A DNA stretch of 55,231 bases, from the IMG/VR virus record IMGVR_UViG_3300008267_000028; one strand, written 5' to 3'. Positions 3,458-35,503 of the stretch are shown piece after piece. The notes beneath the pieces are model-generated. The model did not search any database, was not told the DNA's origin, and worked only from the letters and a program-made list of their open reading frames with translations. Both the position numbers and the translations under genes were made by a program. Position 1 is the stretch's first letter; each line of letters opens with the position of its first letter. This DNA is from an uncultured virus (IMG/VR IMGVR_UViG_3300008267_000028). Taxonomy: Duplodnaviria; Heunggongvirae; Uroviricota; Caudoviricetes.

Positions 3458-4074
3458 CATACACGTTCACGGCAGGGACCGACGAGGCTGGCTACGGAGC
3501 ATGGGCTGGCCCGCTCTGTGTGGCGGGTGTACGGACCCCCGTGGCGTGGAAGCCGCCTCTGGGCCTCACGGACTCCAAGAAACTCTCGGAAGCCCAACGT
3601 GAGACGCTCTATGTGGCGTTGACGAGCGACCCCAGCATCGTCTGGATGGTCAGGTTGGTGTCTGCCCAGCAGGTCGATAAGCAGGGCGTCCACACCTGCC
3701 TACGGGAAGCCCACGAGACAATCCACCGCGACCTCTCGTGGGACATCTCGGGCGTCCGCTGCGTGGCAGACGGCACTCTCGCGCTACAGGGCGGGATCGA
3801 GTCGATCCCCAAGGCCGACCTCACCATCCCAGCGGTGTCAGCGGCCTCCATCATCGCCAAGGTCACACGGGACCGCGAGATGGTCAGGCTGGCCGAACAG
3901 TTCCCAGACTATGCGTTCGAGCGTCACAAGGGCTACGGGGTACCCGTCCACGAGGCAGCCCTACGGCTCCACGGGCCGTGTGCGTTGCATCGGATGAGTT
4001 ACGCCCCCCTGCGTGCCTTCGAGAAGAAGCCCGTCAACCTACTCGATCTCCTGAGTGAACTCCCCCAAGAGTAG
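3448..4074 (+). CDS. rnhB: ribonuclease HII
   Basis: GTDEAGYGAWAGP, DSKKL, SAASIIAKVTRD, HKGYG. Confidence 0.93.
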   Translation: MDLAYTFTAGTDEAGYGAWAGPLCVAGVRTPVAWKPPLGLTDSKKLSEAQRETLYVALTSDPSIVWMVRLVSAQQVDKQGVHTCLREAHETIHRDLSWDISGVRCVADGTLALQGGIESIPKADLTIPAVSAASIIAKVTRDREMVRLAEQFPDYAFERHKGYGVPVHEAALRLHGPCALHRMSYAPLRAFEKKPVNLLDLLSELPQE

Positions 4075-5571
4075 GTTCTCGTCGCTTGCGATCCGCATAA
4101 CGTGCTTGAACGAGTCCGCTTGGTCCCGTGTCATGTCCTTGTCCATGACGTAGTGTGCGAACGCCTCCGCGAACGCCTCGTCGATGTTGGACTTGCCGTA
4201 CCGACTGACCGGCGTGGGCCGAGTCAAACGGAACCGCGCAGACAAGCCGTTCAAGGCGGCATCGTTTTCCCGTACCCAAGCGTCAACCTTCTGGTCGATT
4301 GACCGCAGGTACGGTTCTCGCATCTCGGGCGTCTGCAACTCGGCCGGGAACAGGTCGTCCAGTATCTCCCGCTCCCGCGCAAGCGCCTTCGTGGCCGGTC
4401 CGACGGCCTTGTTGTACGCTTGGAGCAGGGAATCAGCCTCGGCCTTCGGCAACTCAATGTTCTTAAACGCCGCAATCAACACCCGCTCAATGCTGGTTGG
4501 CAGCAGCTTCATGTGAAAAGTCACGGCGCTCTTTTTTGCCAACACTTCTTCAACTGGACACTTGGCGAAGATGTCTGCCGTCGCGGCGATGTACTTGAGC
4601 CGGGCCGCTACCGATTCTCGTGCCTCAAGGAGGTCGGGTTCAATGTCCTTGCCGGTCAGGTCAACGAGGTCCGTGAACTGGTCGCGTTGGGCTTTCCCCA
4701 TTTGCTTGAACCAATAGCGGTGTCCCAACTCGTGGATCATCAGGTAGGTGACGAATGTACTCGGGCGACTGAACACCGACACGGTATCGGGACCAATCAC
4801 AAAGTGACCCCCGACACCAAAATCTTTCCCGTTCTGGTTGACGCCTCCGCACTCCTCGCATCGGATGAACGTCGTGCCGTACCACGCCTTGTCCAGCTTC
4901 TTGGCCTTCAAGCGGTGGTACGCATCTTTTAGGTACTCGACGTACTGGTTGACCTGCTGGGGTGTCACGGTACGGTCATCCACGACAACCTTCATGCCGT
5001 ACAGGTCGAACTCGGACTCGGCCTCCTGCCCCCACGCTTCCTGTGTACCCTCGGGGTCAGTCTGCTCGGACTTCTCGACCTGTGCGGCGCTGTCTCGCAA
5101 TATCTTGAGGATACGGTCGAGAAGTTCAGTCGGGTCGCCCTTCCGGGTCCCCATGCCCATCCCACCACGCCCGCTGACAACCCCCGACATCGCGCTCTGA
5201 AAGTCCGTCTTGAACGCCTCCAACACCCCTTGCGCGTGGTCGGCGTCCTGCGGTGACGAGGAACCCGCGAAACTGGCGTCTATCTTTGCCCGTTTGTACT
5301 TGGCATCCAAAAACTGCCGTAGTTCGTCGAACTTCTTGAGCAGGGAGGGCCGCGTGCTGGGCATCATGGCGGGCGAGCGCCGCTGTAAGGTAATCTGCTT
5401 TTCCAAGTTCTCGACGAACTCGGCCAGCCCACCGATAGCGCGAAGAACGTCGGGCCACCCGGTGATGCGTGGCTTCATCAGCGACAACCAACCGCGCCGC
5501 ACCCCGACTAACCATTCCTTGTCGAGCAAGGCGGCCGTGAACCGGCGAACCACCACATCTGCGCGGACCAT
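4039..5571 (-). CDS. zincin-type metallopeptidase domain protein (putative virion cargo)
   Basis: IHELGH followed by PVSRYG...EAFAEAF; terminal VVRRFTAA and RIAS motifs. Confidence 0.7.
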   Translation of the reverse strand: MVRADVVVRRFTAALLDKEWLVGVRRGWLSLMKPRITGWPDVLRAIGGLAEFVENLEKQITLQRRSPAMMPSTRPSLLKKFDELRQFLDAKYKRAKIDASFAGSSSPQDADHAQGVLEAFKTDFQSAMSGVVSGRGGMGMGTRKGDPTELLDRILKILRDSAAQVEKSEQTDPEGTQEAWGQEAESEFDLYGMKVVVDDRTVTPQQVNQYVEYLKDAYHRLKAKKLDKAWYGTTFIRCEECGGVNQNGKDFGVGGHFVIGPDTVSVFSRPSTFVTYLMIHELGHRYWFKQMGKAQRDQFTDLVDLTGKDIEPDLLEARESVAARLKYIAATADIFAKCPVEEVLAKKSAVTFHMKLLPTSIERVLIAAFKNIELPKAEADSLLQAYNKAVGPATKALAREREILDDLFPAELQTPEMREPYLRSIDQKVDAWVRENDAALNGLSARFRLTRPTPVSRYGKSNIDEAFAEAFAHYVMDKDMTRDQADSFKHVMRIASDENLLLGEFTQEIE

Positions 5572-5580
5572 CCGTGCCTC

Positions 5581-5940
5581 CTATCCACCCACATAGACGA
5601 CGAACTGCCCGTCACCCTTGGCTCTCGCACCCCAGAGGTCGAGCGTCTCCTGACACCACTTCTGGAACTCCTCCGTGCTGGCCCAAGTGTCGCGGGTCGG
5701 CAGCGGCTTGAAGTGGAGTTCCCCCTCGGCGCTATCGGGGTCGCTACGCCCCGTTCGGAACCCGATGTAGGACCGCGTGGGGTCGAGTTCGTACTTGAAG
5801 GGTTTGGCAGCCTTGCTGATCTTTGCCAGAATGGCGGTGACGCCCGTTTGCTCGATAGTCATGGCCTTGCGGTGAACATCCATGAGGGCCGAGTGAACGT
5901 CGAGCGTGGCAGCGGCGGTTCGTTCGTAGGTGTAGGGCAC
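5581..5940 (-). CDS. hypothetical protein with N-terminal RTAA motif
   Basis: GAGGAGG RBS, operonic. Confidence 0.7.
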   Translation of the reverse strand: MPYTYERTAAATLDVHSALMDVHRKAMTIEQTGVTAILAKISKAAKPFKYELDPTRSYIGFRTGRSDPDSAEGELHFKPLPTRDTWASTEEFQKWCQETLDLWGARAKGDGQFVVYVGG

Positions 5941-5951
5941 GGGGAGCCTCC

Positions 5952-8900
5952 TCAGAGTCCAAGTAGGTAACGGGTGACGACACGGCTGGGCGCGTCCGCA
6001 CCCACGCTCGCCACCTTGTCGATGATGGAGCCGTCCTTGAGGTACTGGTCCTCAAGACCGACGACGAGGTACTGATTCTTGAGCGTGCTGGCCTCGTGAC
6101 CAACCGCCTCGGCGGTCGCCTCCAGAGCCTTCTTGAACTCGGCCTTCAACGCCTTCGTCTTACCCTTCTTGTCGCTCGGGAGTTCGCCACCGGCCTTCCG
6201 CTCCTCCCGCAGCTTCTCGGCCATCACTCGGTTGGCGTGGAAGCCCCGCAGGTCCTTGGCGGTCACGTCGAAGGGTTCAAGGTAGGCGTTGACCTTCTCG
6301 GCGGTCACTCGGCCACCCTCCCACTCGAAGATGGAGGCGTCCTCGCCCTCAACGGCCTCGTAGGCGTCCCGCAGGGCGTTCTTGATGGAGGTGTCCGACA
6401 CCTTCTTCTTGTGCTTGACGCCAGACTTCCCCGTGTACGAGATGGTGACGCCCCCCTTGCCGAACGACAGGTGACCTCGCTGCCAGCCCGTCACCCCAAA
6501 GTGGCCCCGCTCCTCCGCAGAGGTATCGTTACCGACCCGCTCGTAGGTGTGGTCGATGAGGGCAACCGCCAGAGCCGTCAGCTTCTTCTCAGGGTCGTCG
6601 CTCCGCAGGTCCTTCTTGACCTTCGACCGCAGCTTCCCGATGCTGGTTTTCATCTTCTCGACCTTGCGGGCCTTCTCGGCGTTCCGTAGGGCGATCTGAC
6701 GCTCGCTGTAAACATAGACGGTACGTTCCTCACCGTCCTTGTTGGTGACCTTCTTCTTTTCCTTGTACCTGGCTGCCACCCTGGTTGTCATGCGGGCGTG
6801 CTGCCAGCCGCGATCTCCAGAGAGGACAACGATGCTTTCGGGCTTGTCCGCACGCTCCAGCAGCTTCCGCAGGTGAGGGGGCAGTTCACGGGGTTCCGTC
6901 GTGGGGATTTTGCCAGTTTCCATGAACTCCTCGAACCGCGCCAAAACGGCATCCTTGCCCGATACGGGCAGGCCGAAGTTCGTGAGCGCGAACAACTCCG
7001 CAAACGCTTCCTCGCCCGACGTGGAACTGTATTGCGTGGTCTGCCACTCGAACTTGTCCCAATCGGCCTTCGGCCTAAACTTGTGGTCGAACCGATGCCC
7101 CAACTCGTGGACGATGATGTAGTCGAAGGCACCATACGTCCCGCGTGTCCGCTTCAACACCGCAGGGGTCGCCCGAACCAGCAGGATGTCCTCCTCTGAC
7201 TTGTACTTGCCACCCGCCGTACCGCCGAACGACTTGGGCGATGCCAGCACAACCTTCAAGCCCCCCGTCAACGCCTTCTTGCGCCAGCCCTTCAACTCTC
7301 GGAACACCTTTTCGAGGTTCTCGGCGTACTCGGCCAACTTGGCCTCGTTGAACCCGACCTCGTTCTCGTAGGTGTTCTGGCCGACCCGCAGTTCCTTGGG
7401 AATCTTCTTGCCGCCCTCGTCACTCAGCAGGCGAACGGCCTCGTCAATCTTGCCCTCTAGGACTCCCCACTTTATCTCAATGGACGCCCGGTAAGATTCT
7501 GCGGGGTTTCCGTTCCGCAGATACCAATGCAGGGCGTCGAGCGTGTCCTTGTACGCCTTGGCCCCCTTGGGGGTCCTCGACACTTGGAAGTGGAAGTTCT
7601 CGGCCAACCACTCCGCGAGCGCCTTGGCCTTGCGTTCGTCAATGGGCTGGTCCCGCAGCACGTCGTCGAACTTCCGCTTGGCCTCCTGCGCGAGCCCGGC
7701 CAGCATGACCCGTGAGGCCACTCTGTCCCGCATCGAAGATGTCCGCAGCATTTGCTTGAAGGACTCCAACTGGTCACGGTCGAGGTTTCGGCCCAAAACG
7801 TAGTCGGCAAAGACCTCTGCGAAAGACTCGAAGATGTGGACGCCACCGTACTCGCTGACGGGCGTTACAGGCTTGTCGAGGCCGTCCTCGGTCTTGCGGC
7901 TCGGCACATAGTCCATGACCTCCCTGACCTTGGCCTTGTCAACGTCCTCGGCGGGGTCCCGCGTCTGCACCATGTCGTTGAACCACGCACGCTGCGATGG
8001 CTTCACAACTCGGAACCAGTAGCGGTGACCCAACTCGTGGACGATGGTGTGGAGCAGGGTGGCTGGATCGTAGCCCGTCAACTCCACGGTGTCCGTGCCA
8101 GGGCTGTAGGTGCCGCCGAACTTCCGCGATACGGCGTACCCCACCTCCTTCATGGCCTCCCACTCCTCGTCGGTGACGTCGCGGGCCTCCTTGGACAGAT
8201 AGATGAGAGGGCCGTACCAGACGTTATCGACCCCCGCACGTTGCAGTAGCCCATACGCCTTGCGGAACGTCTGGATCACCCATTGGTCGGTGTCGAGGTC
8301 GCCCCCTGGATCGAGGATGATGACCTTCGCCTTCCCGATGGAGAGTTCTCGGGCGATGCCTCGGTCCTCGTATAACGAGGGGTCCAGATACTTCGACCTC
8401 CCGATGTCGAGGAAGAAGCGGTCCAAGACCTTCAAGGTGTTGACGGCAGGCCGCTTCTCCACGGCGTTCGCCAACACCTTCTCACGGGCCTTCGTCTCCT
8501 TCATGTAGGCGAGGAACTCGGGCGTCGGAGGCATCACGTCCCATGACATCGACACAGCCGAGGGAGCCTTGCCGCGAAGGCGGCTCTCAAGGTCCCGCAG
8601 CGGACGCCAACTGATTTCCGGCTCGTTCTCGATGGCGTTCGCCAGCGTCTTTACGGTGCGGTCATAGTTGTCGAGGACGGCCTTGGCCGCGAAGGTCCCG
8701 AAGGGAGTCTCACTCCGCAGAGCGGATACGGCGCTTTTGTAGCGGGTCGCACACCAACGGAGTTTCTGCTCGGCGTCCCAGAACTTCCATTGACGCTCGA
8801 TCTCCTTGGCGAAGTACGGGTTGTACCGCGAGAAGTCCACGGCCTCCTTGACGACACTCGCCAGCCACTCAGCAAACTCCTCGATCTTCGATGCCACCCC

Positions 8901-9026
8901 CTCGAAGTCGCTGCCCTTCACAGGGGTAGCAAGCCAATCCGAGAGGGTCCGCTTCTTTGCCTCGAACCACTCGGCAGGCATCTCGATGTCGGCGGCCTTC
9001 TTAGCCGTCCACATGGACGGCCTCAA
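5952..9026 (-). CDS. polyprotein: two zincin metallopeptidase domains plus DNA topoisomerase IB
   Basis: HELGH near 8030 and 7100, each followed by E.FAE; TopIB catalytic set RVGN, GKSG, KDLR, GH...QY in about 5990-6790. Confidence 0.8.
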   Translation of the reverse strand: MRPSMWTAKKAADIEMPAEWFEAKKRTLSDWLATPVKGSDFEGVASKIEEFAEWLASVVKEAVDFSRYNPYFAKEIERQWKFWDAEQKLRWCATRYKSAVSALRSETPFGTFAAKAVLDNYDRTVKTLANAIENEPEISWRPLRDLESRLRGKAPSAVSMSWDVMPPTPEFLAYMKETKAREKVLANAVEKRPAVNTLKVLDRFFLDIGRSKYLDPSLYEDRGIARELSIGKAKVIILDPGGDLDTDQWVIQTFRKAYGLLQRAGVDNVWYGPLIYLSKEARDVTDEEWEAMKEVGYAVSRKFGGTYSPGTDTVELTGYDPATLLHTIVHELGHRYWFRVVKPSQRAWFNDMVQTRDPAEDVDKAKVREVMDYVPSRKTEDGLDKPVTPVSEYGGVHIFESFAEVFADYVLGRNLDRDQLESFKQMLRTSSMRDRVASRVMLAGLAQEAKRKFDDVLRDQPIDERKAKALAEWLAENFHFQVSRTPKGAKAYKDTLDALHWYLRNGNPAESYRASIEIKWGVLEGKIDEAVRLLSDEGGKKIPKELRVGQNTYENEVGFNEAKLAEYAENLEKVFRELKGWRKKALTGGLKVVLASPKSFGGTAGGKYKSEEDILLVRATPAVLKRTRGTYGAFDYIIVHELGHRFDHKFRPKADWDKFEWQTTQYSSTSGEEAFAELFALTNFGLPVSGKDAVLARFEEFMETGKIPTTEPRELPPHLRKLLERADKPESIVVLSGDRGWQHARMTTRVAARYKEKKKVTNKDGEERTVYVYSERQIALRNAEKARKVEKMKTSIGKLRSKVKKDLRSDDPEKKLTALAVALIDHTYERVGNDTSAEERGHFGVTGWQRGHLSFGKGGVTISYTGKSGVKHKKKVSDTSIKNALRDAYEAVEGEDASIFEWEGGRVTAEKVNAYLEPFDVTAKDLRGFHANRVMAEKLREERKAGGELPSDKKGKTKALKAEFKKALEATAEAVGHEASTLKNQYLVVGLEDQYLKDGSIIDKVASVGADAPSRVVTRYLLGL

Positions 9027-10245
9027 GGTAGCGGGCTGCCACGCGGGTCGTCATGTCGCCAGCCGTTCGACCTTCCGTGTACCAGTTGATGGCCTTACCG
9101 CCGAGTTCGGGCAGGGGGCGGGGCTTCCAATGACTGACGAGTGCTTTCAGCGGAGCGATGGTTTTTTCAATATGTTCGATTTGCCGTTCCAACGTCGTGC
9201 CGTACTCTTTGACCGCGTAATCCCATTGTTTGGAGTCTGGCGTCAGTATGACGGACTCGCGGAAACCATACCATGCCGAGTCAATCTTTGTGGTCTTTCC
9301 GGCCTTTAGGTCGCGTAACTTGTCCTTGTAGTCGTCGATTTTCGACAGACTGACGCTCAAGGCAACCTTGGTGGCGTGGTCGGATAACTCAAAGGGGGGT
9401 AATCCGGCCCCCGTACACTCCCGCTCAACGTACCCTCCACCGGGGCGCTCGTATCCGTGCATGACCATCACAAGACTGCCGCCTTTTGATCGAGTCTTAT
9501 AGACGCCGAAACACACGCCGCACGTCCCCAACCCGCCGCTGCCCCTTGCTTTGCTAGGCTTGTCCGTACCTTTCTCGACGCCCAGCGCGTTGGCCGCGAG
9601 GTCGTCCCAATGGACCTTATCCCGCAACCACTTTTTCGCAGCGGAGGCGTCGTAAAACTTTTCTGTATGCCCCGCCAATGACACGATAAAGTACGGGTAC
9701 GCTCGCCACCCGTGGTGTATGAGTCGGAACCCCTGCCGTTCTTTTCTAAGCTCGATGTGAGAGTTTGCACCGTCGTATGGCCTGATGTCAGGGGGCGGTC
9801 GGTCATAAAACTTTATGTTGTATTCTCTAACGTAATCGTCTGCCTCGGCCTGAGCCTCCTCTTTGGTGGGGTAGTGTGTGTTGTTGGCAGAAGCAGATTC
9901 CCGTATCTCTAATTTTTCATCAAATGTCCCACCAAGGTGCGAGACGATTGCCTCGATTTCGGGCAACTTTATCCCGGTTGTGGCCCCTTCAACGACCTTG
10001 AGTAACAAGTCCTCAATTTTTTTGGGCTTCGCCGCGTGCCTGTTGTCCATCATGGCTTTCTTCTCCCAATGTGAAAACTGGCCGTTCCCGTACCACACGG
10101 GGCGGCCACGCTTGGCCTTGAGGTCGGAGATCAGCGTACCCGCGTCGATGGAGGTCAGCTTGTCCCAATCCGGCTCGTCCGCACCCACCTGCCCGAGGAG
10201 GTGCTTCAAGTAACTGACCTGCGAGGGGGTGGCTGGCTTACTCAT
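9001..10245 (-). CDS. modular hypothetical protein (ATPSQ N-domain, CxxC/H/C Zn-binding C-domain)
   Basis: GTCGVC...MHGY...CTG; ends RTAGDMTTRVAARYL; alternative start 10257. Confidence 0.7.
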   Translation of the reverse strand: MSKPATPSQVSYLKHLLGQVGADEPDWDKLTSIDAGTLISDLKAKRGRPVWYGNGQFSHWEKKAMMDNRHAAKPKKIEDLLLKVVEGATTGIKLPEIEAIVSHLGGTFDEKLEIRESASANNTHYPTKEEAQAEADDYVREYNIKFYDRPPPDIRPYDGANSHIELRKERQGFRLIHHGWRAYPYFIVSLAGHTEKFYDASAAKKWLRDKVHWDDLAANALGVEKGTDKPSKARGSGGLGTCGVCFGVYKTRSKGGSLVMVMHGYERPGGGYVERECTGAGLPPFELSDHATKVALSVSLSKIDDYKDKLRDLKAGKTTKIDSAWYGFRESVILTPDSKQWDYAVKEYGTTLERQIEHIEKTIAPLKALVSHWKPRPLPELGGKAINWYTEGRTAGDMTTRVAARYLEAVHVDG

Positions 10246-10552
10246 CGTCGTCACCATCGGGATCGAACGCTAGGACGGCCCCGCCAGCGGGTGCCTTGGC
10301 GGCCTCCTGCTCCGCGAGCGCCTTGTCCTTCACGTCCTTACGCCAAATCTTGAACAGACCGAACACCTTGTTCTGCTTGCGGCCCTTGGGGATCGGCTCG
10401 ACCTCGACGGTCGGGTTCCCCCACTTGTCCTGGCCGAACGCCACAACTTTCCCAACGTGGTTCTTGTACTTGCCATACAGGATCACGTCGCCCACGTTGA
10501 AGTAGGCGGCACGCAGGAACCGTGCGGCGACTCGTAGGGCTGTGAGGCTCAT
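10238..10552 (-). CDS. small SH3/KOW-like protein with RVAARF leader
   Basis: FNVGDVILYGKYKNHVGKVV beta-barrel pattern. Confidence 0.65.
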   Translation of the reverse strand: MSLTALRVAARFLRAAYFNVGDVILYGKYKNHVGKVVAFGQDKWGNPTVEVEPIPKGRKQNKVFGLFKIWRKDVKDKALAEQEAAKAPAGGAVLAFDPDGDDDE

Positions 10553-10575: not shown

Positions 10576-11832
10576 TTACCTGTCGGCGTTGAGGTTGCCC
10601 TGCACGGACCAAGCGAAGTCCAACTGAACGTCGTTGACGAACATCGTCGAGTTCATGTCGATGTACTGGTCAGTCGTGTAGCCCAGCCGCCCAGAACTCG
10701 TCGCCAAGGCGTGGCACGCCATGCAGTTGGTCTGCACACCGTACTGGAAGTCAGGTTGGAACTGGTTGGGCTGCTGAAAAACCTTCGGGCCGAACCCCGC
10801 CTCAAGGTACGGGTTGTAGGCGATGACGGGCGTTGCACCCCTGTCGGTACCGCCCGTGACGGGCTGGTTGGGCCACACCATCGTGTAGGCCGCCGACACC
10901 GCGTAGTGGCGAGCCGCGCCCTTGACGGCCTCGGGCATCAACGAGGCATCCCGCCACGAACTCGGCAGGCCAGGGTTCGCGGGGTCAGCCGCCCAATAGA
11001 ACGTCTGCCAAGTCCAGTTCTTCATCTCCTTCGAGGTAACGTGCATGGCGACGAGTAGCGCGTAGTCACCGGCCTCGAAGTTATTGGTGTGGCCTCGGTC
11101 CTGTGCGTCGTTCAAGTAGTCGGCGGCCCGCTGGTCGAGTCGGAAGTGAATGAAGTCAGAGGCGTTGCAGGTCGCGGCCTCGACCTGCTGGGGGGTCGGG
11201 TTGTCGCCCGTGACCGGCACGATCCCCTTGCCGCTCGGCTGTCCGTTGTCGAGGTCAACATACACGAACGTCGTCCACGCATCGTACTTCCACGCCTTCG
11301 CGGGGTTGGGCGTCGTCGTCCAACTCGGGAGCCGCACCAGCCCGTGCTGCTTACCCACGACGTAGTAGGTGGGCTTGGTGGTGATGGCTCGAACGGGGAA
11401 CTCGGGAACCTTCCCAATGTCACCCGCCACGAGGTACCGATCCAGCACACTCTGGTTGAACAGGAGGTTCGACGTTGCAAAGCACGCAGCGTCGGGACTG
11501 TAGGCGACCGTCTCCATGATGTGGAAGTCGGCACCCGCCAACGCCAAAAGCCCGCCGTGTGCGAACTGGCGGGGCTGCTTCATCTTCGGGGTACCGCCGT
11601 GTGAGGTACGGCAGCCAGCCTCTCGGTCCCCAAGGGCTGCCGCGTTAGCGAGGTCGCCCACACCCATCCACGTCTGGTAGGTCAGAAGGGTCTGACCCTC
11701 GTAGGTCTGGGGGGTCGGCATCGTCAGCCCCGCCCAGATACCCCACGCATGGCGCGTGACGGAGTTGGTATCCTTCTGGTCGAGCCACCCGTAGATGGTC
11801 TTTTGGCTCTCGGGGAACTGGAAGCCCTCCAT
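10576..11832 (-). CDS. c-type cytochrome-like protein (single C-terminal CxxCH)
   Basis: TNCMACH; LVAMHVTSKE..WTWQTFYW; no signal peptide visible. Confidence 0.6.
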   Translation of the reverse strand: MEGFQFPESQKTIYGWLDQKDTNSVTRHAWGIWAGLTMPTPQTYEGQTLLTYQTWMGVGDLANAAALGDREAGCRTSHGGTPKMKQPRQFAHGGLLALAGADFHIMETVAYSPDAACFATSNLLFNQSVLDRYLVAGDIGKVPEFPVRAITTKPTYYVVGKQHGLVRLPSWTTTPNPAKAWKYDAWTTFVYVDLDNGQPSGKGIVPVTGDNPTPQQVEAATCNASDFIHFRLDQRAADYLNDAQDRGHTNNFEAGDYALLVAMHVTSKEMKNWTWQTFYWAADPANPGLPSSWRDASLMPEAVKGAARHYAVSAAYTMVWPNQPVTGGTDRGATPVIAYNPYLEAGFGPKVFQQPNQFQPDFQYGVQTNCMACHALATSSGRLGYTTDQYIDMNSTMFVNDVQLDFAWSVQGNLNADR

Positions 11833-15816: not shown

Positions 15817-16827
15817 CTAGCCGCCGAAGGTAGCCCCGCCAAGGATGCCCGCGCTGCTGAGAATCTCATCAGCCGACATACTCTTGACGATCTCATCCGC
15901 AGTCATCTTGGGGGCGTCGGCCTTGACCTCGATCACCTTGGCGGCCTCGGGAGCGTCGGCCTTGACCTCAATCACCTTGGTGACACTGGCCTTGGCAGCA
16001 CCAGCCTTGCAGCGGTACACACCACGGCCCGCCTCCTTGACCCGCTCGAAGCGATCCTTCGCGCTCGACAACAGGTAGGCGATGTAGGGGAGCGGGTTGC
16101 TGGAGTTCGGCAGCCACCCCTTGGCCTTCAACTCCGTGAAGATGTCGGCAGCGTTCATCTGGCGGCTTCCCATCACCGTCTGCATCGCATCACGGATGGG
16201 GGGACGCTTGCCCGACGCCACCGCCTGCTGTCCAGCCTTGCGGGGGTTGCTGACCTTCGTGACCTTCGCGCCAGCCTTGGCGGTCTTGGCGGTCTTGGCG
16301 GCAGCCTTCTTAACCTTGGAGCCAGCGGTCTTGGCAGCCTTGGCAGCCTTCTTGGCCTCAAGGGCAGCCGCCTTCTTGGCAGCCTTCTCAGCCTTCTCGG
16401 CGGCCAGACGCGCAGCACGCTCGGCGTTCGTGGGGCGGCCCATCTTGCGACGGACCTTCACCTCGTCGGGGCGCATCGTCGTGGGCTTGGCCGCCACCTT
16501 CGTAGCCGCCTTTGCATCGGCCTTCGCAGCCTTGGTAGCCTTCGCAGAACGGCCACCCTTCTTGGCGGGCTTGATGACAACCGGCTTGGAGGCAACCGGC
16601 TTGGCCGCTGCACTCTGCTGACCCACCAAAGCCTGCTCGGCCTCACGCTGGATCGCATCGAGGCTCGCCAAGAAACGAACCTTCGCGGCAACCGTGGCCT
16701 CCGTAGCCTTGAGGTTGGCGACCAACGTGCGGAGGCTGTCGGCCATCTGCTGCTGCGACTTCTGCGCGGTAACGATGTCGCGGGCCAGATCGTCGCGGAT
16801 GCCCTTGATTGCCTTCATGGTACTCAT
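15817..16827 (-). CDS. histone H1-like Lys/Ala-rich DNA-binding protein with AT-hook and winged-HTH
   Basis: KAAK repeats, KMGRP, MNAADIFTELKAKGW...GRGVY; GAGG RBS before 16827. Confidence 0.75.
   Translation of the reverse strand: MSTMKAIKGIRDDLARDIVTAQKSQQQMADSLRTLVANLKATEATVAAKVRFLASLDAIQREAEQALVGQQSAAAKPVASKPVVIKPAKKGGRSAKATKAAKADAKAATKVAAKPTTMRPDEVKVRRKMGRPTNAERAARLAAEKAEKAAKKAAALEAKKAAKAAKTAGSKVKKAAAKTAKTAKAGAKVTKVSNPRKAGQQAVASGKRPPIRDAMQTVMGSRQMNAADIFTELKAKGWLPNSSNPLPYIAYLLSSAKDRFERVKEAGRGVYRCKAGAAKASVTKVIEVKADAPEAAKVIEVKADAPKMTADEIVKSMSADEILSSAGILGGATFGG
15914..15980. repeat. 28-nt direct repeat x2 (39-nt period) encoding KVIEVKADAP
   Basis: 15914-15941 and 15953-15980, one mismatch. 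Confidence 0.9.
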
Positions 16828-16913
16828 CTTGATCCTCGTCTGGGCCTTGTCGGGTGGTCCATCCACCCTCATCTCATTGACCCTCTGGGCAACAATCACC
16901 CTGTCACAAACTC

Positions 16914-19652: not shown

Positions 19653-20045
19653 ATGGGAATGTTCTCTTGGGATTGTCCAGCCTGCCAGCACAGCGTCCGC
19701 GCCCCTTGCGCGACCAACACCACCAGCGAGTGGTTGTCGGAGGCCGTCGTTCTTCTCGACAACGGCTCACGTCTCGTCGGTACCTATGACGGCTACGGCT
19801 CCGTGGCTGGCGGCGAACTCGACTTCGGGGACAGCTTCACCCTGTACCACAAGGCGTGCTGGCACCTGTGGGGCAAGCCGGAATACACCACGCAGTCGCG
19901 GTCGGCGCACGATCAGGGCTACTTCGTCGGGGAGTACGATCCCTCGGAACCCAAGTCGGAGGCCGACCTTGAGAGCCTTCGGAAGGTCGGGACCGAAAAG
20001 CGAGAAGCCTCCCGCCGTATGTGGCAGAAGGTCCTCGGGGGCTAG
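19653..20045 (+). CDS. phage hypothetical protein (MGxFSWxC type)
   Basis: GGAGGT RBS; MGMFSWDC, YDGYG, DQGYF. Confidence 0.8.
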   Translation: MGMFSWDCPACQHSVRAPCATNTTSEWLSEAVVLLDNGSRLVGTYDGYGSVAGGELDFGDSFTLYHKACWHLWGKPEYTTQSRSAHDQGYFVGEYDPSEPKSEADLESLRKVGTEKREASRRMWQKVLGG

Positions 20046-20800
20046 GGGAGGTACTTGGCGGCGGCCTCGTAGGCGTCGTCCATCGCCCACCCCACGGCCT
20101 GCGAGTCCACCAGCGAGGTGTCGAAGCCCTTTGAGGCCAACCACCCCTCGACATCATCCCGCGACATCAACTGCTTGAAGGTCTGCGAGAGGATGCTGCC
20201 TGCCATCTGCCGCTCGACGATCTCGGGCGGCGTACCAGGCCGTGCCTTGAAGTCAAAGGGCACCACCCCTCGCTCCAAGTCACCCAGCCTTCGCAACAGG
20301 ACGGGCACCACCTTCTCGTCCGCGTAGTCGGCCACGAGTTTGTCGAGCCTGCGGGTCGCCTCGTCCTTCATGGTTTCGAGGTAGTCCTGCATGGACGCCA
20401 GAGAGGCATCCTCTCGCCGCATCATCTCAGCCGAGATGATGCGGAACTCGGCGTTGCTGACGCGGTTCAACTGCTGCTTGCGGTCCAAGGCCACAATCTT
20501 GCTGGACATCTGGCTGGCGGTCCCCCACACCTTCTCGTTGCCGTCGCTGACCCGCCACATCGCCACGATGTTCTTGTCGGTGTCATACGCCCACAGGTAC
20601 CGCCACTTGTTGGCACCTTGGGGCGGCCCGATGAACCGACCGTCACCTTCCAGAGTCTCGTCCTCGGTACGGTCACCCAGAGGGCCACCATCCGTGGAGA
20701 GAGCGTACTTCCGACCCCGAATCGCCAAGACGGGCTGGCCGGAACGTGGTCGCATTGGCACCACATCGCCAGCCGTCCGTGGGGGTCGGAAGTACGTCAT
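20042..20800 (-). CDS. hypothetical protein with N-terminal RTAG motif
   Basis: AGGAG RBS, 252 aa. Confidence 0.75.
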   Translation of the reverse strand: MTYFRPPRTAGDVVPMRPRSGQPVLAIRGRKYALSTDGGPLGDRTEDETLEGDGRFIGPPQGANKWRYLWAYDTDKNIVAMWRVSDGNEKVWGTASQMSSKIVALDRKQQLNRVSNAEFRIISAEMMRREDASLASMQDYLETMKDEATRRLDKLVADYADEKVVPVLLRRLGDLERGVVPFDFKARPGTPPEIVERQMAGSILSQTFKQLMSRDDVEGWLASKGFDTSLVDSQAVGWAMDDAYEAAAKYLP

Positions 20801-20809
20801 AGGCCGCTC

Positions 20810-22399
20810 CTAGCGCCAGACCGAGAACTGCAACTCGTAGTTGACCTTGTTGGCCTTCAACCACTCGTCGAACTTGCCGAACGGGATAGACTTGAGGGCG
20901 TTCGGGTCGGCCTTGAGAATCTGATACAACTTGCGGGCAGACGCCGCCGCCGTTGAGACAATCATCGTGTAGGACGGGTCCATGCTCTGGAAGTCAGAGT
21001 CGGGCGAGTACGCCTTGAACTTGGTCCAACTGCACGACACCGTGAAGTCCTTACCCTCGGCCTCGAAAGGCTCGACGTTCTCGGGCGTCACCTGGAGGAA
21101 GTGGACGGACTCCTCGTACCACTTGTTGGCGCGGATGTAGTCGAGTTTCGGGTCGCCTCCCGTCACGATCTCGGCGGCAGCCGCGAACGCATCCTGCAAC
21201 TTGTTCTTCACCGCGTCATACGAGTCGCCGGTCCCGATATGCGCGTCACGGAGCAAGTTCTCGTGGATGAACGGACCAGTGTTTTTCAGATACGTCATGC
21301 CAAGGTACGTCTGTAGGGTCGCCACACGCAGCTTCCGCTTCCCCTTGGCGGGCAGTTCTTCCAGCTTCCAGTTGTGGATGCCCCACGTTAGCCGAAACTC
21401 CTTGCCGACCATCTTGCCTTCCCAACCCGCCGTCTTGCCCGTGCTGGCCGCGAGGAACCGCTCCATCACCTTCCCTGCCAAGGTGCCGCTGGTTCGAGCC
21501 TCCTTGGTCCACCACAGCGTCTTGGCGGTCGGCAGGACGTTCGACAAGTCCTCGGGCTTCATCATCCGATTCGCCTTGGAGTCGCCCTCGAACCGCAGCG
21601 CGAAGGACTTGCGGGCCGGATAGACGATCAACTCGGCCTTGAAAGGTGCGCCGCGATTGTCCAAGCCCTTGACGTCCAACGTCACCGAACGATCATCCAG
21701 AGCCTCAACCTCGTGGTCGAAACGACGGTACTCGTCCTTGACGGCCTCGATGAGGTCGCGGAGGTCACCGCTACTGGTTCGCTGCATGGCTGCTGTCCTT
21801 ACCCCCAGCGTCTCAAGCTGGTCGAGAGTTGTCCCACGGTTGATGTCGAGGATGGTGAACACTTCGTTGGCGAGTTTCTCGGCCTTTTCCTGCTCTTTAC
21901 GAGGCAGACCCGCGAAGTTGATCTCCCCCAACAGGGTTCGTGTGGTCTGTAGGGCTTGACGGGTCCGTTTCAAGATCGACTGTAGTTCTCGCTCCCGCTG
22001 CTCCCGCGCCACTTCGTCATAGTGGCTGGGCGCGACGGTATGCGGCCCGGAGGCGTACTTGCTGACCGACTCCAACATCGCCTTTGCCTTCTTGCGGGCG
22101 TCTGCCATGCTCTTGGCGGCCTGTTCTTCCTTGTCGCCTCGATAGTTCATCTGCACGATGAGGCTGCCCCCGTCGTCAAAGATGTACGCCTTGCGCCCGC
22201 CGTCGGATACCTCCTCGACGAGTTTGGCACCGGCCGTCTTGCCCTTTAGGTACTCGGAGGTCGGCAGGTGGCACGAGTCGGAGTCGGGCTTGACGTGCTT
22301 GCAGTAGATGGACCACGCGGTGGCCCACGCCTGCTCGTCCGTGTAGTTCGGGTTCGTGCTTTTCACTTCGTCGAACAACTCGTCAACCTTGGCGGGCAT
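20810..22399 (-). CDS. modular protein with multiple [KR]xA linkers; ChaB-like N-terminus
   Basis: EQAWATAWS; KTAG, KYAS, RTAA, RTSS, RTSG, KVMERFLAA, KTAG. Confidence 0.7.
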   Translation of the reverse strand: MPAKVDELFDEVKSTNPNYTDEQAWATAWSIYCKHVKPDSDSCHLPTSEYLKGKTAGAKLVEEVSDGGRKAYIFDDGGSLIVQMNYRGDKEEQAAKSMADARKKAKAMLESVSKYASGPHTVAPSHYDEVAREQRERELQSILKRTRQALQTTRTLLGEINFAGLPRKEQEKAEKLANEVFTILDINRGTTLDQLETLGVRTAAMQRTSSGDLRDLIEAVKDEYRRFDHEVEALDDRSVTLDVKGLDNRGAPFKAELIVYPARKSFALRFEGDSKANRMMKPEDLSNVLPTAKTLWWTKEARTSGTLAGKVMERFLAASTGKTAGWEGKMVGKEFRLTWGIHNWKLEELPAKGKRKLRVATLQTYLGMTYLKNTGPFIHENLLRDAHIGTGDSYDAVKNKLQDAFAAAAEIVTGGDPKLDYIRANKWYEESVHFLQVTPENVEPFEAEGKDFTVSCSWTKFKAYSPDSDFQSMDPSYTMIVSTAAASARKLYQILKADPNALKSIPFGKFDEWLKANKVNYELQFSVWR

Positions 22400-26475: not shown

Positions 26476-27046
26476 GGTCGATCCTTTCGGTTTGGAGGCG
26501 CACCGCTTCTACCACGTCGTCCCATGAGGTCGCACGAGTTAGTCCACGGTCTAGCCTGTTGTAGGGCGCTTCCCATAACAGCCCTATGCCGTCTGGGTTC
26601 TCCTTCGTCCAAGCCATGACGTTCTCGGGCTTGTCGTCCACGAACACGTCGCCCCTGCACAGGTGCTTGGCCTCCGTATAGACAAGGTGCGTATCGGGGA
26701 TGCCAACCTGTCGAGACAGCCAGCCTGCTCGGTCGGTGTACCAAAAGGGTGAGTTCCTCATCGGAGCCGTCACCGCGTACACCTCGGCCACCCCTTGGAG
26801 GCGAGACACTCCCTCCGAGACACCCTCGTAGCGGGCGAGCCTGGCCGCTACACCAGGTCTCGCACACTCGTAGAAGAACTCGTGCTTCCACGCTGGATCG
26901 AAGGTCTGGAACAGGTCCCAATCCGTGAACTGCTCACGGGTGTAGGTCCTGCCGCTCAACTCCTCCATCGTCTGGATGGCGAAGCCAAGGAAGTCGGCCA
27001 GCACCCCATCAACGTCCAGCAACACCCTCGGCCTTCTCTGCGCCAC
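26447..27046 (-). CDS. 5'(3')-deoxyribonucleotidase (HAD, NT5C-like)
   Basis: DVDGVLADF, VTAP, VDDKPEN. Confidence 0.88.
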   Translation of the reverse strand: MAQRRPRVLLDVDGVLADFLGFAIQTMEELSGRTYTREQFTDWDLFQTFDPAWKHEFFYECARPGVAARLARYEGVSEGVSRLQGVAEVYAVTAPMRNSPFWYTDRAGWLSRQVGIPDTHLVYTEAKHLCRGDVFVDDKPENVMAWTKENPDGIGLLWEAPYNRLDRGLTRATSWDDVVEAVRLQTERIDRGVLCEDSR

Positions 27047-27761
27047 GGTAAATCTCCAACTTCTTGAGCCAGTAGATGATCGACATGGGCTGAGTTCCGA
27101 ATCGGGCGGCGATCTTATGGGGCGACAGCCCCTCCCCGTACAGGCGAATCACCTCATCGACGTCAACTCGGCCGTGTGTGGGCGCTCCCATGACCTCGCT
27201 GACGAGGTTCCCACAGACCTGTTCTCGGAGGTCGGGGTCCGCATAGACGTAGTTGCGGAGTGTATACATCGAGACGCCACAGACCTCGGCCAACTCCCGC
27301 CATGTCCTCCCCACCGCGAGCCGGATGATCTCATCGTCGGGGGGCTTCTTGTGGGACTTGTCCTTCAAGACCACCCCGTGCTTGTCCGCGATCAGTTTGA
27401 CCTCGGCGGGAGTGGTGCCAATCTCGGTGGCGATCTCCTTGGCGGTACGCTCGGGTGACAAAGCCGCCTGTATGCGGGCGTGCCGCTCCTCTCGCTTCGC
27501 ATCCGAGAGCCGTGGCAGGTCGGCTCCAGCCTTCTTGCGCCATTGGGAAACCGCCTGCCGCGACACTCCAAGGCGGGCCTGGACCTCATCGGTGGTCAGT
27601 TCGTACAACTTCTCGGTCAGCCAGTAGTGTCGCAACTCGTCGGGATCAGGGTAACGGGCATCCGGCCCCAACCCCCGCACAGCCTCGGCCTTGTTGGGGA
27701 ACATCCCGTACCGCACAGGCGCACTCCCCTGCTGAGAGCAGAACAGCTTGAGGCCACTCAT
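27009..27761 (-). CDS. multi-HTH DNA-binding protein
   Basis: Four HTH-like repeats (LGVSRQAV, IGTTPAEV, CGVSMYTL, FGTQPMSI). Confidence 0.75.
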   Translation of the reverse strand: MSGLKLFCSQQGSAPVRYGMFPNKAEAVRGLGPDARYPDPDELRHYWLTEKLYELTTDEVQARLGVSRQAVSQWRKKAGADLPRLSDAKREERHARIQAALSPERTAKEIATEIGTTPAEVKLIADKHGVVLKDKSHKKPPDDEIIRLAVGRTWRELAEVCGVSMYTLRNYVYADPDLREQVCGNLVSEVMGAPTHGRVDVDEVIRLYGEGLSPHKIAARFGTQPMSIIYWLKKLEIYRGAEKAEGVAGR

Positions 27762-28186
27762 AGCGTCTCCTTGATCTGGAGGGACAGCCGCTCCATCTCC
27801 GCGATCAGTTCCCGCTGCCGCTCCATGAGAGCCAACACCTTCTCCTCCTTGGTCGGCTCGGGCGGCTTAGGCGGGGGCGGCGGCTCCACCTTGACCCACA
27901 GGGGAAGCTGCGGCGCTCCAAGGAACAGACCGAGTTCCTCCAGGTAGAACTCGATGATCTCCACGGTCTGGCGTCCGAGATTCTGGATTTTCAGCAACTC
28001 GAACCTTGACATCTTAGCAAGGTCGGCAAGTGTCTTGATGGCCCGACGGTCAAACACCCCCTGTGCGCGGTTGCCGAACGGCACCACATGAACGGGCGTC
28101 TCCAGCAACTTCTCTCGCGGCAACGCCTTCAAGTGAGCAAATAGAGGCTTGTCCTTGGTGTAAATCTTCATCGCTCTAGCGGCCAT
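27758..28186 (-). CDS. RNA polymerase alpha-subunit CTD-like protein
   Basis: NRAQGVF..AIKTLADL...ELLKIQNLGRQTVEII; GGAGGT RBS. Confidence 0.82.
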   Translation of the reverse strand: MAARAMKIYTKDKPLFAHLKALPREKLLETPVHVVPFGNRAQGVFDRRAIKTLADLAKMSRFELLKIQNLGRQTVEIIEFYLEELGLFLGAPQLPLWVKVEPPPPPKPPEPTKEEKVLALMERQRELIAEMERLSLQIKETL

Positions 28187-28228
28187 GTGTACCTCCTGCG
28201 CCGCTATCAGAGCGGCAGCATGGGGTAA

Positions 28229-28258
28229 CAGGTAACACAGCGTAAGAGCAACTGTCAA
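28229..28258 (-). promoter_or_regulatory. sigma70-like promoter TTGACA-N18-TACCTG
   Basis: Perfect -35, intergenic, upstream of the alpha-CTD gene. Confidence 0.45.
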
Positions 28259-28268
28259 GCGTTGTCGA

Positions 28269-28577
28269 TCAATCTTTTGACAAATCCACACTGGCCCGCT
28301 GGATGGCGGCTTCCAGCGAGGCGGGCAGGGCGTCATCGTCGAGGAAGTCATCGACGTCGAAGGCAGACCGCATGAGGCGTGAGAAGGCGTCATCGGAGTC
28401 CCGCCAGCCGTCGATGAAGTGCCGCAGGGCAGCGGTCACTTGATCCTGCTCCTCTTGCGTGCGGGCACGACGGTACATGGCCTCGAAGCGGGCCACCTCG
28501 TCGGGTTTCATGTTGGTGGTGAGTCCTCGGAACCGAAGGACGTCGATGAGCAGGTTCTTCCGCTTCCGCTTGTTCAT
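28269..28577 (-). CDS. hypothetical protein
   Basis: Class II motif 6 nt upstream. Confidence 0.75.
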   Translation of the reverse strand: MNKRKRKNLLIDVLRFRGLTTNMKPDEVARFEAMYRRARTQEEQDQVTAALRHFIDGWRDSDDAFSRLMRSAFDVDDFLDDDALPASLEAAIQRASVDLSKD

Positions 28578-32776: not shown

Positions 32777-35503
32777 GCACCCCTCTCCTCCCCTACCTTG
32801 CCGTCCGATAGGTTCTTCTCCAGTAGTTGCTCTGCGAACCGTCCCGCGTTGACCCGTATCTTGAGGTTGGGGTCGATCAGTACGTTGCCAAACCCGTCGA
32901 TGAGCCGCAGGTAGTGGCCCGTGTCCACCGTCATCCAACGCCCGATGGCCTCCCTGACCTGTGCGACCGAGAGCGCCGTCGTGGTCTTGAGCCGTACCGT
33001 GGCGGTCCTCACCTTCTCGGTACCCTGCTGGGCAGGTGCGGAGGGCGGCGGGGGAGAGGGCGGCCGGTACCTTCTTGTAAACGTACCCGTGAGAGATGAA
33101 ACCACCCTCGGGAGGCTGCTCGCCTTCCTTGGCCCTGTGGCACCCGAACTCGGCACCCCAAGACTCTCCCAGCAGCGGGTCCGTCACCAACGGGACCAGC
33201 CACTTGGGCGAGTAGGGCGGCCTCGCCATGATGGTGGGCTTTTCCATCTCGCGGGTCAACACGGGGATGACCTCGAACACGAGATCATGCCGCACCTCAA
33301 AGACCAACTCATCGTGGACGGTCAGGAGCATCCTGACCGCATCCGCTGCGTCCTTGAGCCAGCCTTGGCGGTACAGTTCCTTGTGGATCAGCACCATGCT
33401 GATCTTCATGATGTCGGCACCGCTACCCTGGATCGGGTAGTTCGTCGCATGACGCTCGCCAGACGCCCGTAGGCTCCGAACGTCCTCCTCGGTCTGGACA
33501 ATCTTGCCCCATGAGTCCTTCTGGCCCTTCTGGAGGTTGGCGTCGGGAATCGCAATCCATCGCCCGAACGCCGTCCACACCCCAAGGTCACGCTTGACCT
33601 TCTCGTGCTGACCTTTGACCCAGTTGGCGAACGTGGACACGGCCTTGTCGAACGCCTGCTTGCGCCGCTGGGCCTCCAGCCGGTTGCAGCCGGTCGCCCG
33701 CATGATGGAGGCGGGGCCGCCGCCGTACACAAGGGCGAAGTTCGCCACCTTGCCCATCTTGCGTTCGTCCTTGGTGACCTCCTTCTTGTTGAAGAACGCC
33801 CTCGCCGTGATGCTGTGGAGGTCGCCGTCGCCGTTCTGGAACTCCTTGATCCAGACAGGCTCGTTGGAGAGGTTCGTGACGATACGGAGTTCCTCGGCGG
33901 CGTAGTCGCACTTGACCATCGTGTATCCCGGCCGGGCCACGAAACTCGTGCGGACGTCCGAGGTGCCAGGGATGCCGTGGATCGGGATGCCGCTGAACCC
34001 GTCCTCCGCGTTGCCTGCGGGGGCCGAGAAACGTCCCGTCGCTGCACCCGTCTGTTTGAACGAGAACCGCAGTTCATCGTTACGGTCAGGGTTCGCGGAC
34101 AGGCTCTCCAGATAGGTACCCAGCATCTTATCTTCTTCGCGGTACCCGTCCACCCACTCCAGCACCTCGGGGGCGTTGACGCCCAACTCCTCCCTGATGG
34201 CCTTGAGGCTCTCGTAGTCCGTCTTGTACTGCTGGGACTTCTCGTTCAAGGGAGGCTTGGGGTTGATGTTCAACCCCCGCTCGCCAAAGAGGAACTCGCC
34301 AAGTTGCTTGGTGGAGCCAGGCTCGAACGCCTCAAAGCCCTTGGAGGTCGCCAATGCAACGATCTTGTCGCGGTACTCCTGCCACTTGGCCCTGTGGGCG
34401 TTCCGCAGCCCCTCCAGACGGCTCCGATCCACCCTGACCTTGTTACGCTCCATGACGCGGACGACCTGCGTGACCTGCTTCTCCAGCCGGTAGATGAACT
34501 TTCGACCCGTCGGGTCCCTGTCGATGACAGGCAGGAGGTCGGGTCTGGCACACAGGAGCCGCGTACAGATGGCGTCGGAGCCAGCGTACTTGACGACACC
34601 TGGCTCGTCAGGGGAGAGGCTCGGGAAACTGATCTTCCGCGATGTCGGGAACAGTTCCTTGAGCTTTATCATCTCGTAGGGCGACCCGTCGGGGGCGCGT
34701 AGCAACTGTGCGGCCTTGTCCTTGAGGGACAGGTTGTGGTCGCCCGAGTACAACGTGAAGTAGGCGAGCATCCCGTCCTCGAAGGAGTCGGGGTGCCAGA
34801 AGTCAATGCCCGTCACAGGGTACAGGAACTCTTGGTCGAACTTGGCGTGCCAGAAGTCGATCACCACCCTCGGGGGCGTCTCGAAGTCCTTGAAGGCCAG
34901 CGGGTCTGTCTGGCCGGGCTTGGGGGTCGGCTGCGCTGCCCGACAGAGCCGTGTGATGGCGGCCTCGACACGCTCGACGGGTTTCACATTGAGGTCAGGG
35001 CCACCGTCCAGCGCCTTGTGTCGGACGGGGATGTAGTAACCCGTCTTGGCCTCACCGACCGCGATACAGAAGCCGACGATCTGATGGTGGGTGCGGGGCC
35101 GTCCCTGTGCGTCCCACTCGATGCGGTTGTCCAGCCCTTCCGTCTCAAGGTCCAGCGAACACTTGCCGTTCGCCAACGCCTCATCGACGATACGCTCAAC
35201 CTCGTCCGAGGTACGCACCAGCACGAACTCGTGGTACTTCATCCACGGCTTCGTGATGTCGGGCACCTCCCGCTCGGCCTTGATGCCGGTGGCACTCAGG
35301 AACGATTCGAGATCGTCGCCCTCGTCCTCATCCACCTTGAAAAGGCTGGTCTGTTTCGTTGTCTCGGAGGCGACAGCTTCCCGCAACTCGGACACGAGGT
35401 CCAAGTCATCGGGTTCCTCGGCGGGTGGGGTGGGTACCTTCGCGGGTGCGGCTTCCTCGTCCAACAGGGCTGCGATGTCATCCAAATCGTCGATTTCAGT
35501 CAT
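32773..35503 (-). CDS. polA: DNA polymerase family A (3'-5' exo + pol), apparent frameshift near 33070
   Basis: DLETEG, HAKFD, YAGSD; DYAAEELR, K..NFALVYG, VHDE; C-terminus lies in the frame ending at 32773. Confidence 0.9.

Follow-up and report, generated by a model that had tools for sequence, protein, structure and literature searches.

Why would a bacterial virus join two metallopeptidases and a topoisomerase IB (TopIB) in one protein? The question is raised by a gene in a 55,231-nucleotide stretch of DNA (hereafter, the window) from an uncultured virus of the class Caudoviricetes (IMG/VR record IMGVR_UViG_3300008267_000028). The gene runs on the minus strand from 9014 to 5952 and encodes three modules bordered by copies of a short peptide, which we call the tag. 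Judged by its sequence relatives, this triple is one draw from a mix-and-match system of interchangeable modules, not a fixed machine. The features of the gene, all on the minus strand, are as follows.

5952..9014: whole gene, 1020 amino acids (aa) from ATG 9014 (1024 aa from TTG 9026)
7734..9014: module 1, aa 5-431; predicted helical domain (8382-8987) and gluzincin (7734-8354); follows K-K-A and ends R-T-S-S; about 50% identical modules in P0022, P0032 and P0229 end at 431-432
8025..8039: HELGH of module 1, aa 330-334; partner E400-x-F-A-E404 at 7815-7829; Tyr393
7707..7724: tag copy 1, RVASRV, aa 435-440; opens module 2; profile score 13.0
6792..7733: module 2, aa 432-745; predicted four-helix bundle (7407-7733) and gluzincin (6888-7409)
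7095..7109: HELGH of module 2, aa 640-644; partner E673-x-F-A-E677 at 6996-7010; Tyr666
6765..6782: tag copy 2, RVAARY, aa 749-754; opens the TopIB module; profile score 20.3
6018..6791: predicted TopIB module, aa 746-1003; the N-terminal domain's last hairpin, followed by the catalytic domain
6537-6539, 6426-6428, 6246-6248, 6096-6098 and 6069-6071: TopIB residues R830, K867, R927, H977 and Y986
5967..6017: C-terminal tail; K-V-A-S at 6006-6017, then tag copy 3, RVVTRY, at 5967-5984; profile score 18.8

A single open frame encodes the three modules

A first, sequence-only reading of the window had proposed one frame at 5952..9026. The uninterrupted frame stands; its strand, minus, was absent from that reading. 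Between TTG 9026 and the stop codon (5952) lie 1024 codons with zero internal stops, and the same coordinates read on the plus strand are riddled with stops. Residues are numbered here from TTG 9026 as residue 1 (P0001); ATG 9014, which overlaps the upstream gene by 14 nt, is the likelier start. The 1020-aa form is recorded by both NCBI and JGI, on two contigs, and a 673-aa database call from Met352 is found on one contig. Residues 1-431 align with P0022, P0032 and P0229 (48-51% identity), and the long form is therefore right. GC content at third codon positions is 0.83-0.85 in each module. An internal restart at Met746 (ATG 6791) was rejected: as had been noticed before, no Shine-Dalgarno-like run precedes this codon, whereas several other window genes do have one, and the 20 residues upstream are kept in close relatives with other partners.

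One contig from run X1, possibly the source of the window itself, covers 5600-7991 with 0 differences and no gaps, both junctions included, and shows no stop or frameshift between modules, which had been named as grounds for rejecting the fusion. The interval 6790-6900, for which a read check had been proposed, is spanned in frame by this contig; run X2, with 20 of 30 bins covered at ≥95%, has no piece across the joint at 6703-6898. Among the 21 X2 differences listed, 18 are synonymous and 3 non-synonymous, spread over all three modules. The uncovered parts of X2, X3 and X8 carry no information either way. G001, the nearest record, has no match to the 1020-aa protein, the capsid protein or the protease, and at 21% completeness is uninformative. 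The exact 1020-aa frame with two zincins and a TopIB is confirmed as real.

The C-terminal module is a trimmed topoisomerase IB

PF01028 matches residues 781-984 (E 3.3e-27; 95.8 bits, cut-off 23.7), solved TopIB chains match at E values from 1.5e-8 to 5e-5, and a Pfam scan of the C-terminal part gave no match to integrase families. R830, K867, R927, H977 and Y986 are all present, in line with the R, K, R, H and Y catalytic set that the sequence-only reading had seen. The full set recurs in 168 of 169 non-redundant relatives (228 proteins reduced at 80% identity). By these sequence matches we assign module 3 to topoisomerase IB, with DNA relaxation as its predicted activity. Alignments begin at residue 61 or 68 in solved chains; the N-terminal domain that two-domain poxvirus and bacterial enzymes have is thus incomplete here, with about 60 residues missing. 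Stand-alone relatives of 272-290 aa start 3-8 residues ahead of the match. The positions of poxvirus Y70, Y72 and R80, which serve in DNA binding, are retained.

The module belongs to a large family, with 535 clusters at 50% identity matching at E <1e-30. Relatives on viral contigs were found by an alignment-based search; a single-sequence scan found none. A close TopIB occurs in 1 of 50,697 GenBank phage records (uncultured), and among cultured phage records five Xanthomonas/Erwinia phages match (25% identity, E 1e-3) and no others. In a quick tree the window groups with P0003, P0122, P0123 and P0004 (support 98).

The 169 chains range from 297 to 3381 aa (median 1002), and TopIB lies internally in 89, N-terminally in 50 and C-terminally in 30. 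Its partners, as found in Pfam scans of 35 and 16 chains, include nucleotidyltransferase, 2H, PAP2, NUDIX, GNAT, HD, SOD, InPase, RNA ligase, LPD1 and DUF5661 domains. At least one HExxH motif is present in 80 of the 169, at least two in 26 and none in 89, so TopIB and zincins are not coupled partners. The architecture had been thought special: we found no printed description of it, and these counts make it less so.

Both remaining modules are predicted zincins

Motifs, the PF01028 match and solved-chain matches bear out the earlier reading of two HELGH/E.FAE metallopeptidase domains in frame with a TopIB. Each protease module has an extra N-terminal helical domain, and the protein therefore comprises five domains in three modules: an N-terminal helical domain and gluzincin in module 1 (AlphaFold predicted local distance difference test score, pLDDT, 87.2), and a four-helix bundle and gluzincin in module 2 (pLDDT 90.9). 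HELGH starts at 330 and 640 and E-x-F-A-E at 400 and 673, so that both carry the gluzincin set of HExxH, downstream Glu helix and Tyr. The H, E, H, E400, E404 and Y393 of module 1 are invariant in 27 of 27 aligned rows, and the H, E, H, E677 and Y666 of module 2 in 72 of 72, with E673 in at least 90%. We take these to be the zinc ligands, catalytic Glu and downstream Tyr, as in gluzincins generally.

The modelled catalytic domains resemble lethal factor (1yqy) with Z 11.0 (root-mean-square deviation 3.9, 170 aa) for module 1 and Z 10.2 (3.8, 164 aa) for module 2, and PPEP-3 with Z 9.9 and 8.7, respectively. Foldseek against the PDB gave no match at E <0.001, though zinc peptidases took every one of the top places, and zincin profiles searched against solved-structure sequences returned nothing useful. 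ESM Atlas placed the modules in unnamed viral clusters, two of which have lethal-factor-like families on 12-20% of members. MPTase-PolyVal (PF18818) weakly matches 8 of 72 module 2 relatives (best E 0.0017), and the window's module 2 has no match to it. On the models, modules 1 and 2 are assigned the zincin fold; peptidase activity is a prediction. Tandem duplication of one zincin was rejected, as the two modules align over just 43 residues (E 0.005).

In relatives, the second protease is often encoded on its own. Among the 120 shorter module 2 relatives listed (of 274), 61 are ≤330 aa, and 33 of these start with the tag. Module 2 is present in two of five genomes searched, three of which are <90% complete.

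Enzyme modules are exchanged at a short peptide tag

The tag is a short helix-like peptide, A-x-R-V-A-x-R-(Y/F), found at the starts, ends and joints of unrelated proteins in the phage clade to which the window is assigned below. RVAxR had been read as a linker between modules. Copies do stand at 435 and 749; the peptide is rather the organising feature, found also at N- and C-termini, and a third copy at 1015 (RVVTRY) had been overlooked. Module borders coincide with the tags: of 361 strong alignments to the protein, 96 begin around the first tag (430-439) and 132 around the second (740-749).

The exact triple is unique to this protein among 377 fetched. Module 1 is joined to TopIB in P0022 and P0032, and module 2 in P0003 and P0050; the latter fusion occurs in independent proteins at 87% and 53% identity, and module 2 also occurs alone as a separate protein. 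In one X1 contig, position 7730 is followed after 239 letters by 6548, as would be expected of a relative lacking module 2. In the complete 529-kb genome G004, the modules match three separate tagged genes at about 10, 85 and 336 kb. Intact enzyme folds are thus shuffled between genes at the tag.

In G004 the tag occurs in 20 of 521 genes called by a simple gene finder, with 23 matches against 1.3 per shuffle and 15 of them ≤40 aa from an end; all fetched proteins went into the training of this profile, perhaps G004's own among them. All four G004 genes with the gluzincin pattern are tagged, with none among the 501 untagged genes, and 17 of the 20 tagged genes have no Pfam family. A profile trained without P0001-P0003 and run over 57 window genes gives three matches in this gene and others in its neighbours, in gene 20810-22399 and in a single helix-turn-helix (HTH) protein; seven of the eight matches lie in the cluster at 4039-10552 or in gene 20810-22399. 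The same scan found no tag in the window's DNA polymerase, helicase, SNF2, ClpX and Thy1 genes.

Within TopIB chains, the tag pattern occurs in 0 of 1525 sequence windows inside TopIB cores and in 15 of 8342 shuffled ones. It lies within the first 30 residues of 60 of 169 chains and the last 30 of 23. Tag codons vary synonymously, so it is the peptide that is under selection; a DNA repeat as its origin was rejected on the same grounds.

The window belongs to a clade of jumbo phages with TopIB often near head genes

Window genes include DNA polymerase A, Thy1, AAA, SNF2-like, helicase-like, lysin and tail genes, some of them named by eye from the sequence. The tail protein shares 49-54% identity with its counterparts in G002-G005. 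Of 43 window genes, 26 have a match in G004, which has capsid and protease genes. Through these genes, other than head genes, the window is assigned to a portal-terminase jumbo phage clade. Clade records reach 619 kb and represent uncultured jumbo phages with a Bxz1-like capsid: the capsid proteins of G003-G006 are 82-83% identical to that of L061, and the L061-type protein is 27-28% identical to the capsid proteins of Bxz1 and Skog. The metagenome-assembled genome labels of L082-L084 may come from binning.

In 44 of 69 distinct loci, a clade TopIB gene has a terminase, portal, protease, scaffold or capsid gene ≤10 kb away; frequently it is flanked by the protease gene on one side and the terminase or portal gene on the other. 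On the tree, head-locus position takes 7 changes against 20.5 when shuffled; we claim no direction of movement.

The clade's head maturation protease matches phrog_18299 (E 1.9e-10). Herpes assemblin, a related protease, cuts after Ala. Module 1 here is preceded by K-K-A and followed by R-T-S-S, TopIB is followed by K-V-A-S, and the tags contain R-V-A. Border motifs end in Ala and do not match the Glu-ending cut site of the T4/SPN3US type. The motif K/R-x-A stands ahead of the portal core in 24 of 32 portals, compared with 49 of 589 core windows (8%) and 19% of shuffles. Its density per 1000 aa is 2.1 in protease, 3.0 in scaffold and 0.2 in decoration protein. In G004 it is 3.3-fold denser in tagged genes (10 in 6737 aa) than in untagged ones (59 in 131768 aa), an excess that comes partly from the tag itself containing the motif.

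In Bxz1 (L087), a scan of 13 genes without shuffle control found five strict K/R-x-A sites each in gp94 and gp95 and none in the capsid and portal proteins. Bxz1 gp94, gp95, gp104 and gp87 are long low-complexity head-region proteins with repeated R/K-x-A-(A/G/S/N), and in gp95 a protease is extended by a long C-terminal portion. LAGLIDADG domains or inteins were seen in protease genes (L036, L058, L055), portal genes (L012, L051) and one TopIB chain.

A loading tag and a prohead protease code are a plausible explanation

We propose, at somewhat better than an even chance and on comparative sequence evidence, that the tag loads the chain into the prohead, that the prohead protease cuts after K/R-x-A and that the enzymes are ejected with the DNA. 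The late-made chain would quite probably be docked by its tag into the assembling prohead. A cut after K/R-x-A (K-K-A, K-V-A, and R-V-A in the tags), which we slightly favour, would free separate enzymes to be ejected together with the DNA. TopIB would then relax supercoils in early transcription or entry, and the zincins may cut host proteins, a target to which we give a little less than an even chance; their anti-host role is a guess. The fusion itself would provide shared loading and no joint reaction. A broader and more tentative suggestion is that the clade runs a combinatorial library of ejected enzymes, in which the tag is a head-loading address, K/R-x-A a protease code, the trimmed TopIB a constant core and the zincins fast-changing anti-host proteases.

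Several points weigh against this proposal. The sequence-only reading had suggested a virion-delivered topoisomerase, which the clade's loci near head genes indirectly support; the window's own copy does not, being outside the head module as in 25 of 69 loci, in a window without head genes. No separate K/R-x-A[SAG] lies between module 2 and TopIB, and none of the portal, protease, scaffold, capsid and decoration proteins has the long tag. In the module 2 model the tag lies inside helix 1 of the bundle, an awkward cut site. Cleavage of the capsid protein at an N-terminal K-T-A-A (L001) was considered and rejected, as the site is not conserved. The eighth tag match in the window, in the HTH protein at 27009-27761, is probably due to chance. 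The tag precedes TopIB in 99 of 169 chains, which inherit it by descent and so are not independent, and the tag and motif patterns were drawn from the very data on which they were tested.

The helix 1 model also suits an unlikely alternative, in which the chain is packaged yet uncut at its joints: the tag would be a docking helix, tagged neighbours would fuse and split freely, and the chain would be delivered whole, as is the N4 virion RNA polymerase, which is packaged without processing (PMC5512222). In its favour, the tagged end of the upstream gene overlaps the start of this gene in a different frame, whereas in relatives parts of this kind are fused. Against an uncut chain, K/R-x-A is conserved ahead of the portal core, is enriched in tagged G004 genes (in part tag-borne) and stands between C-terminal tags and the enzyme.

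If the protein were not virion cargo, the tag might direct it to an intracellular site, with TopIB serving replication or DNA packaging at a late stage of infection. We consider this improbable. The window copy is away from head genes in a window rich in replication genes, and many partner domains are RNA- or nucleotide-repair enzymes usable at any time. However, the window's replication-type genes are untagged, from DNA polymerase and helicase to SNF2, ClpX and Thy1, and in many relatives TopIB lies between portal and protease genes, the slot of MuF cargo genes in other phages (PMC5576092).

It is also rather improbable that the zincins themselves cut the chain at the tag, in cis or conceivably in trans. 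Iyer et al. 2017 (PMC5512222) propose autoproteolysis by polyvalent-protein metallopeptidases, and HExxH occurs in 80 of 169 TopIB chains. Yet chains lacking HExxH have the tag no less often (71 of 89) than those with it (66 of 80), module 2 was found in only two of the five genomes searched (three <90% complete), and the zincins are diverse and themselves tagged, like cargo.

An assembly artefact or a dead fusion of three neighbouring genes is scarcely credible: although both joints are spanned in X1 alone, possibly the source, one database call begins at Met352 and the exact triple is found once among 377 proteins, the contigs have no gaps at the gene, independent module 2-TopIB fusions exist at 87% and 53% identity, and the X2 differences listed are 18 synonymous against 3 non-synonymous.

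Comparison with known systems

The link to phage polyvalent proteins, made in the sequence-only reading, holds up in Pfam scans, which find unrelated enzymatic domains in one chain. In the available part of Iyer et al. 2017 (PMC5512222), zincin metallopeptidases are likewise a hub among unrelated enzymes, and packaging and release are proposed; relatives here have LPD1, InPase, 2H and GNAT. That part describes no border tag and has 'topoisomerase' in its reference list alone, and here, unlike there, TopIB is the constant part and zincins are optional. Phage TopIB is in print for jumbo subgroup 2.2 (RSL1, Lu11, PaBG, Motura, NCTB; Iyer et al. 2021, PMC7824862), where the accessible sections list it with DNA-handling genes and give no fusion or virion role.

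In SPN3US, portal and ejection proteins carry propeptides that the prohead protease cleaves off at a motif of three residues (PMC10052503). The T4 capsid-targeting sequence and the SPN3US/phiKZ propeptides, one of them on the portal, are, like the tag, short signals on head proteins, removed there by protease. SPN3US cuts after Glu (AXE), whereas we propose a cut after K/R-x-A, and 13 of its 14 sites remove N-terminal propeptides, whereas tags here are also internal, C-terminal and on exchangeable enzymes (same source). MuF polymorphic toxins (Jamet et al. 2017, PMC5576092) are also variable enzymes, 20% of them metallopeptidases, with genes adjacent to that for the portal. In contrast, Pfam and head-gene scans found no MuF family here, and three modules fill the chain; the place of the MuF domain seems to be taken by a peptide some 10 residues long.

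Vaccinia TopIB is encapsidated and active in early transcription (PMC12188299). The catalytic residues and Y70/Y72/R80 positions of poxvirus TopIB align with module 3; unlike it, module 3 lacks about 60 N-terminal residues and is embedded in a chain of a bacterial virus. Lethal-factor and Pro-Pro endopeptidase gluzincins are the closest structures to both modelled catalytic domains, at 14-18% identity over the catalytic domain alone, and the shared fold is silent on substrate.

A literature search found no TopIB-peptidase fusion, other TopIB fusion or this tag, although fusions of this kind could be listed in the supplements to both Iyer papers; the available portions of a Myrna preprint and a 2026 jumbo-phage review leave tag and TopIB-peptidase fusion unaddressed. 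Phage TopIB and polyvalent proteins are known; TopIB in such chains and the tag are apparently new. The locus adds near relatives that gain or lose a whole module at tags, and zincins as a tagged cargo class.

Neighbouring genes

Four genes near the TopIB gene are listed here.

9001..10257, minus strand: upstream gene; DUF3072-like module and second module; ends R-T-A-G, then RVAARY at 9028-9045
10238..10552, minus strand: 104-aa gene; N-terminal RVAARF tag, score 26.6
4039..5571, minus strand: 510-aa gene for a third predicted gluzincin, distantly paralogous to module 1; weak tag at the N-terminus and R-I-A-S at the C-terminus
5581..5940, minus strand: 119-aa gene between two zincin genes; R-T-A-A at residue 7; no Pfam family; possibly cargo

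Both modules of the upstream gene are fused to TopIB or module 1 in relatives (P0004, P0032, P0122, P0229). In the interval 9001-9045 the upstream gene ends in a tag and overlaps ATG 9014 by 14 nt in another frame; because P0022, P0032 and P0229 have tag and module 1 in frame, a single base may have split what was once a fusion. Here the X1 contig is gapless and has one substitution, at 9020. The module of the 104-aa gene recurs inside many TopIB chains (28 fetched proteins match) and is weakly KOW-like in ESM Atlas (score 0.85, a lead only).

Gene 20810-22399 (529 aa), with one tag and six K/R-x-A/S sites, is by sequence likely another cargo chain; a tagged gene of G004 matches the C-terminal half of its product. 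Gene 20042-20800 (252 aa) begins R-T-A-G, and its module occurs inside nine fetched proteins, mostly TopIB chains. The DnaJ-domain protein at 44309-45418 is untagged; its G004 counterpart has a C-terminal tag. A second type of N-terminal leader, L-R-S-K-L-I-R-L-A-H ending K-E-A/K-S-G, was seen on unrelated proteins (L001:26619-27023, 34246-35301) and in P0232 ahead of pentapeptide repeats and module 2.

Elsewhere, the histone-like product of 15817-16899 is rich in Lys and Ala, and its C-terminal part is conserved (53% to G004). Gene 10576-11832 (418 aa) has two CxxCH-like or heme-type motifs by eye, no Pfam family and no G004 match, and looks acquired from a cell. Gene 27758-28393, adjoining a multi-HTH gene, has an RNA polymerase alpha C-terminal-like domain; its product is a possible host-transcription mimic.

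Implications

How large phages select the enzymes they pack is understood in few systems. If the tag is a loading signal, the injected payload of hundreds of uncultured phages would be readable from sequence, candidate counter-defence enzymes could be listed from their tags, and the tag could be used as a tool to load proteins into capsids. Bxz1, which is in culture and has a capsid protein of 27% identity, may already allow the K/R-x-A idea to be checked. The role of TopIB in bacteria and phages is unclear, and the proposed reading gives this large family a testable job at the start of infection. If true, it would provide a bacterial-virus parallel to the encapsidated TopIB of poxviruses and to viral polyprotein processing.

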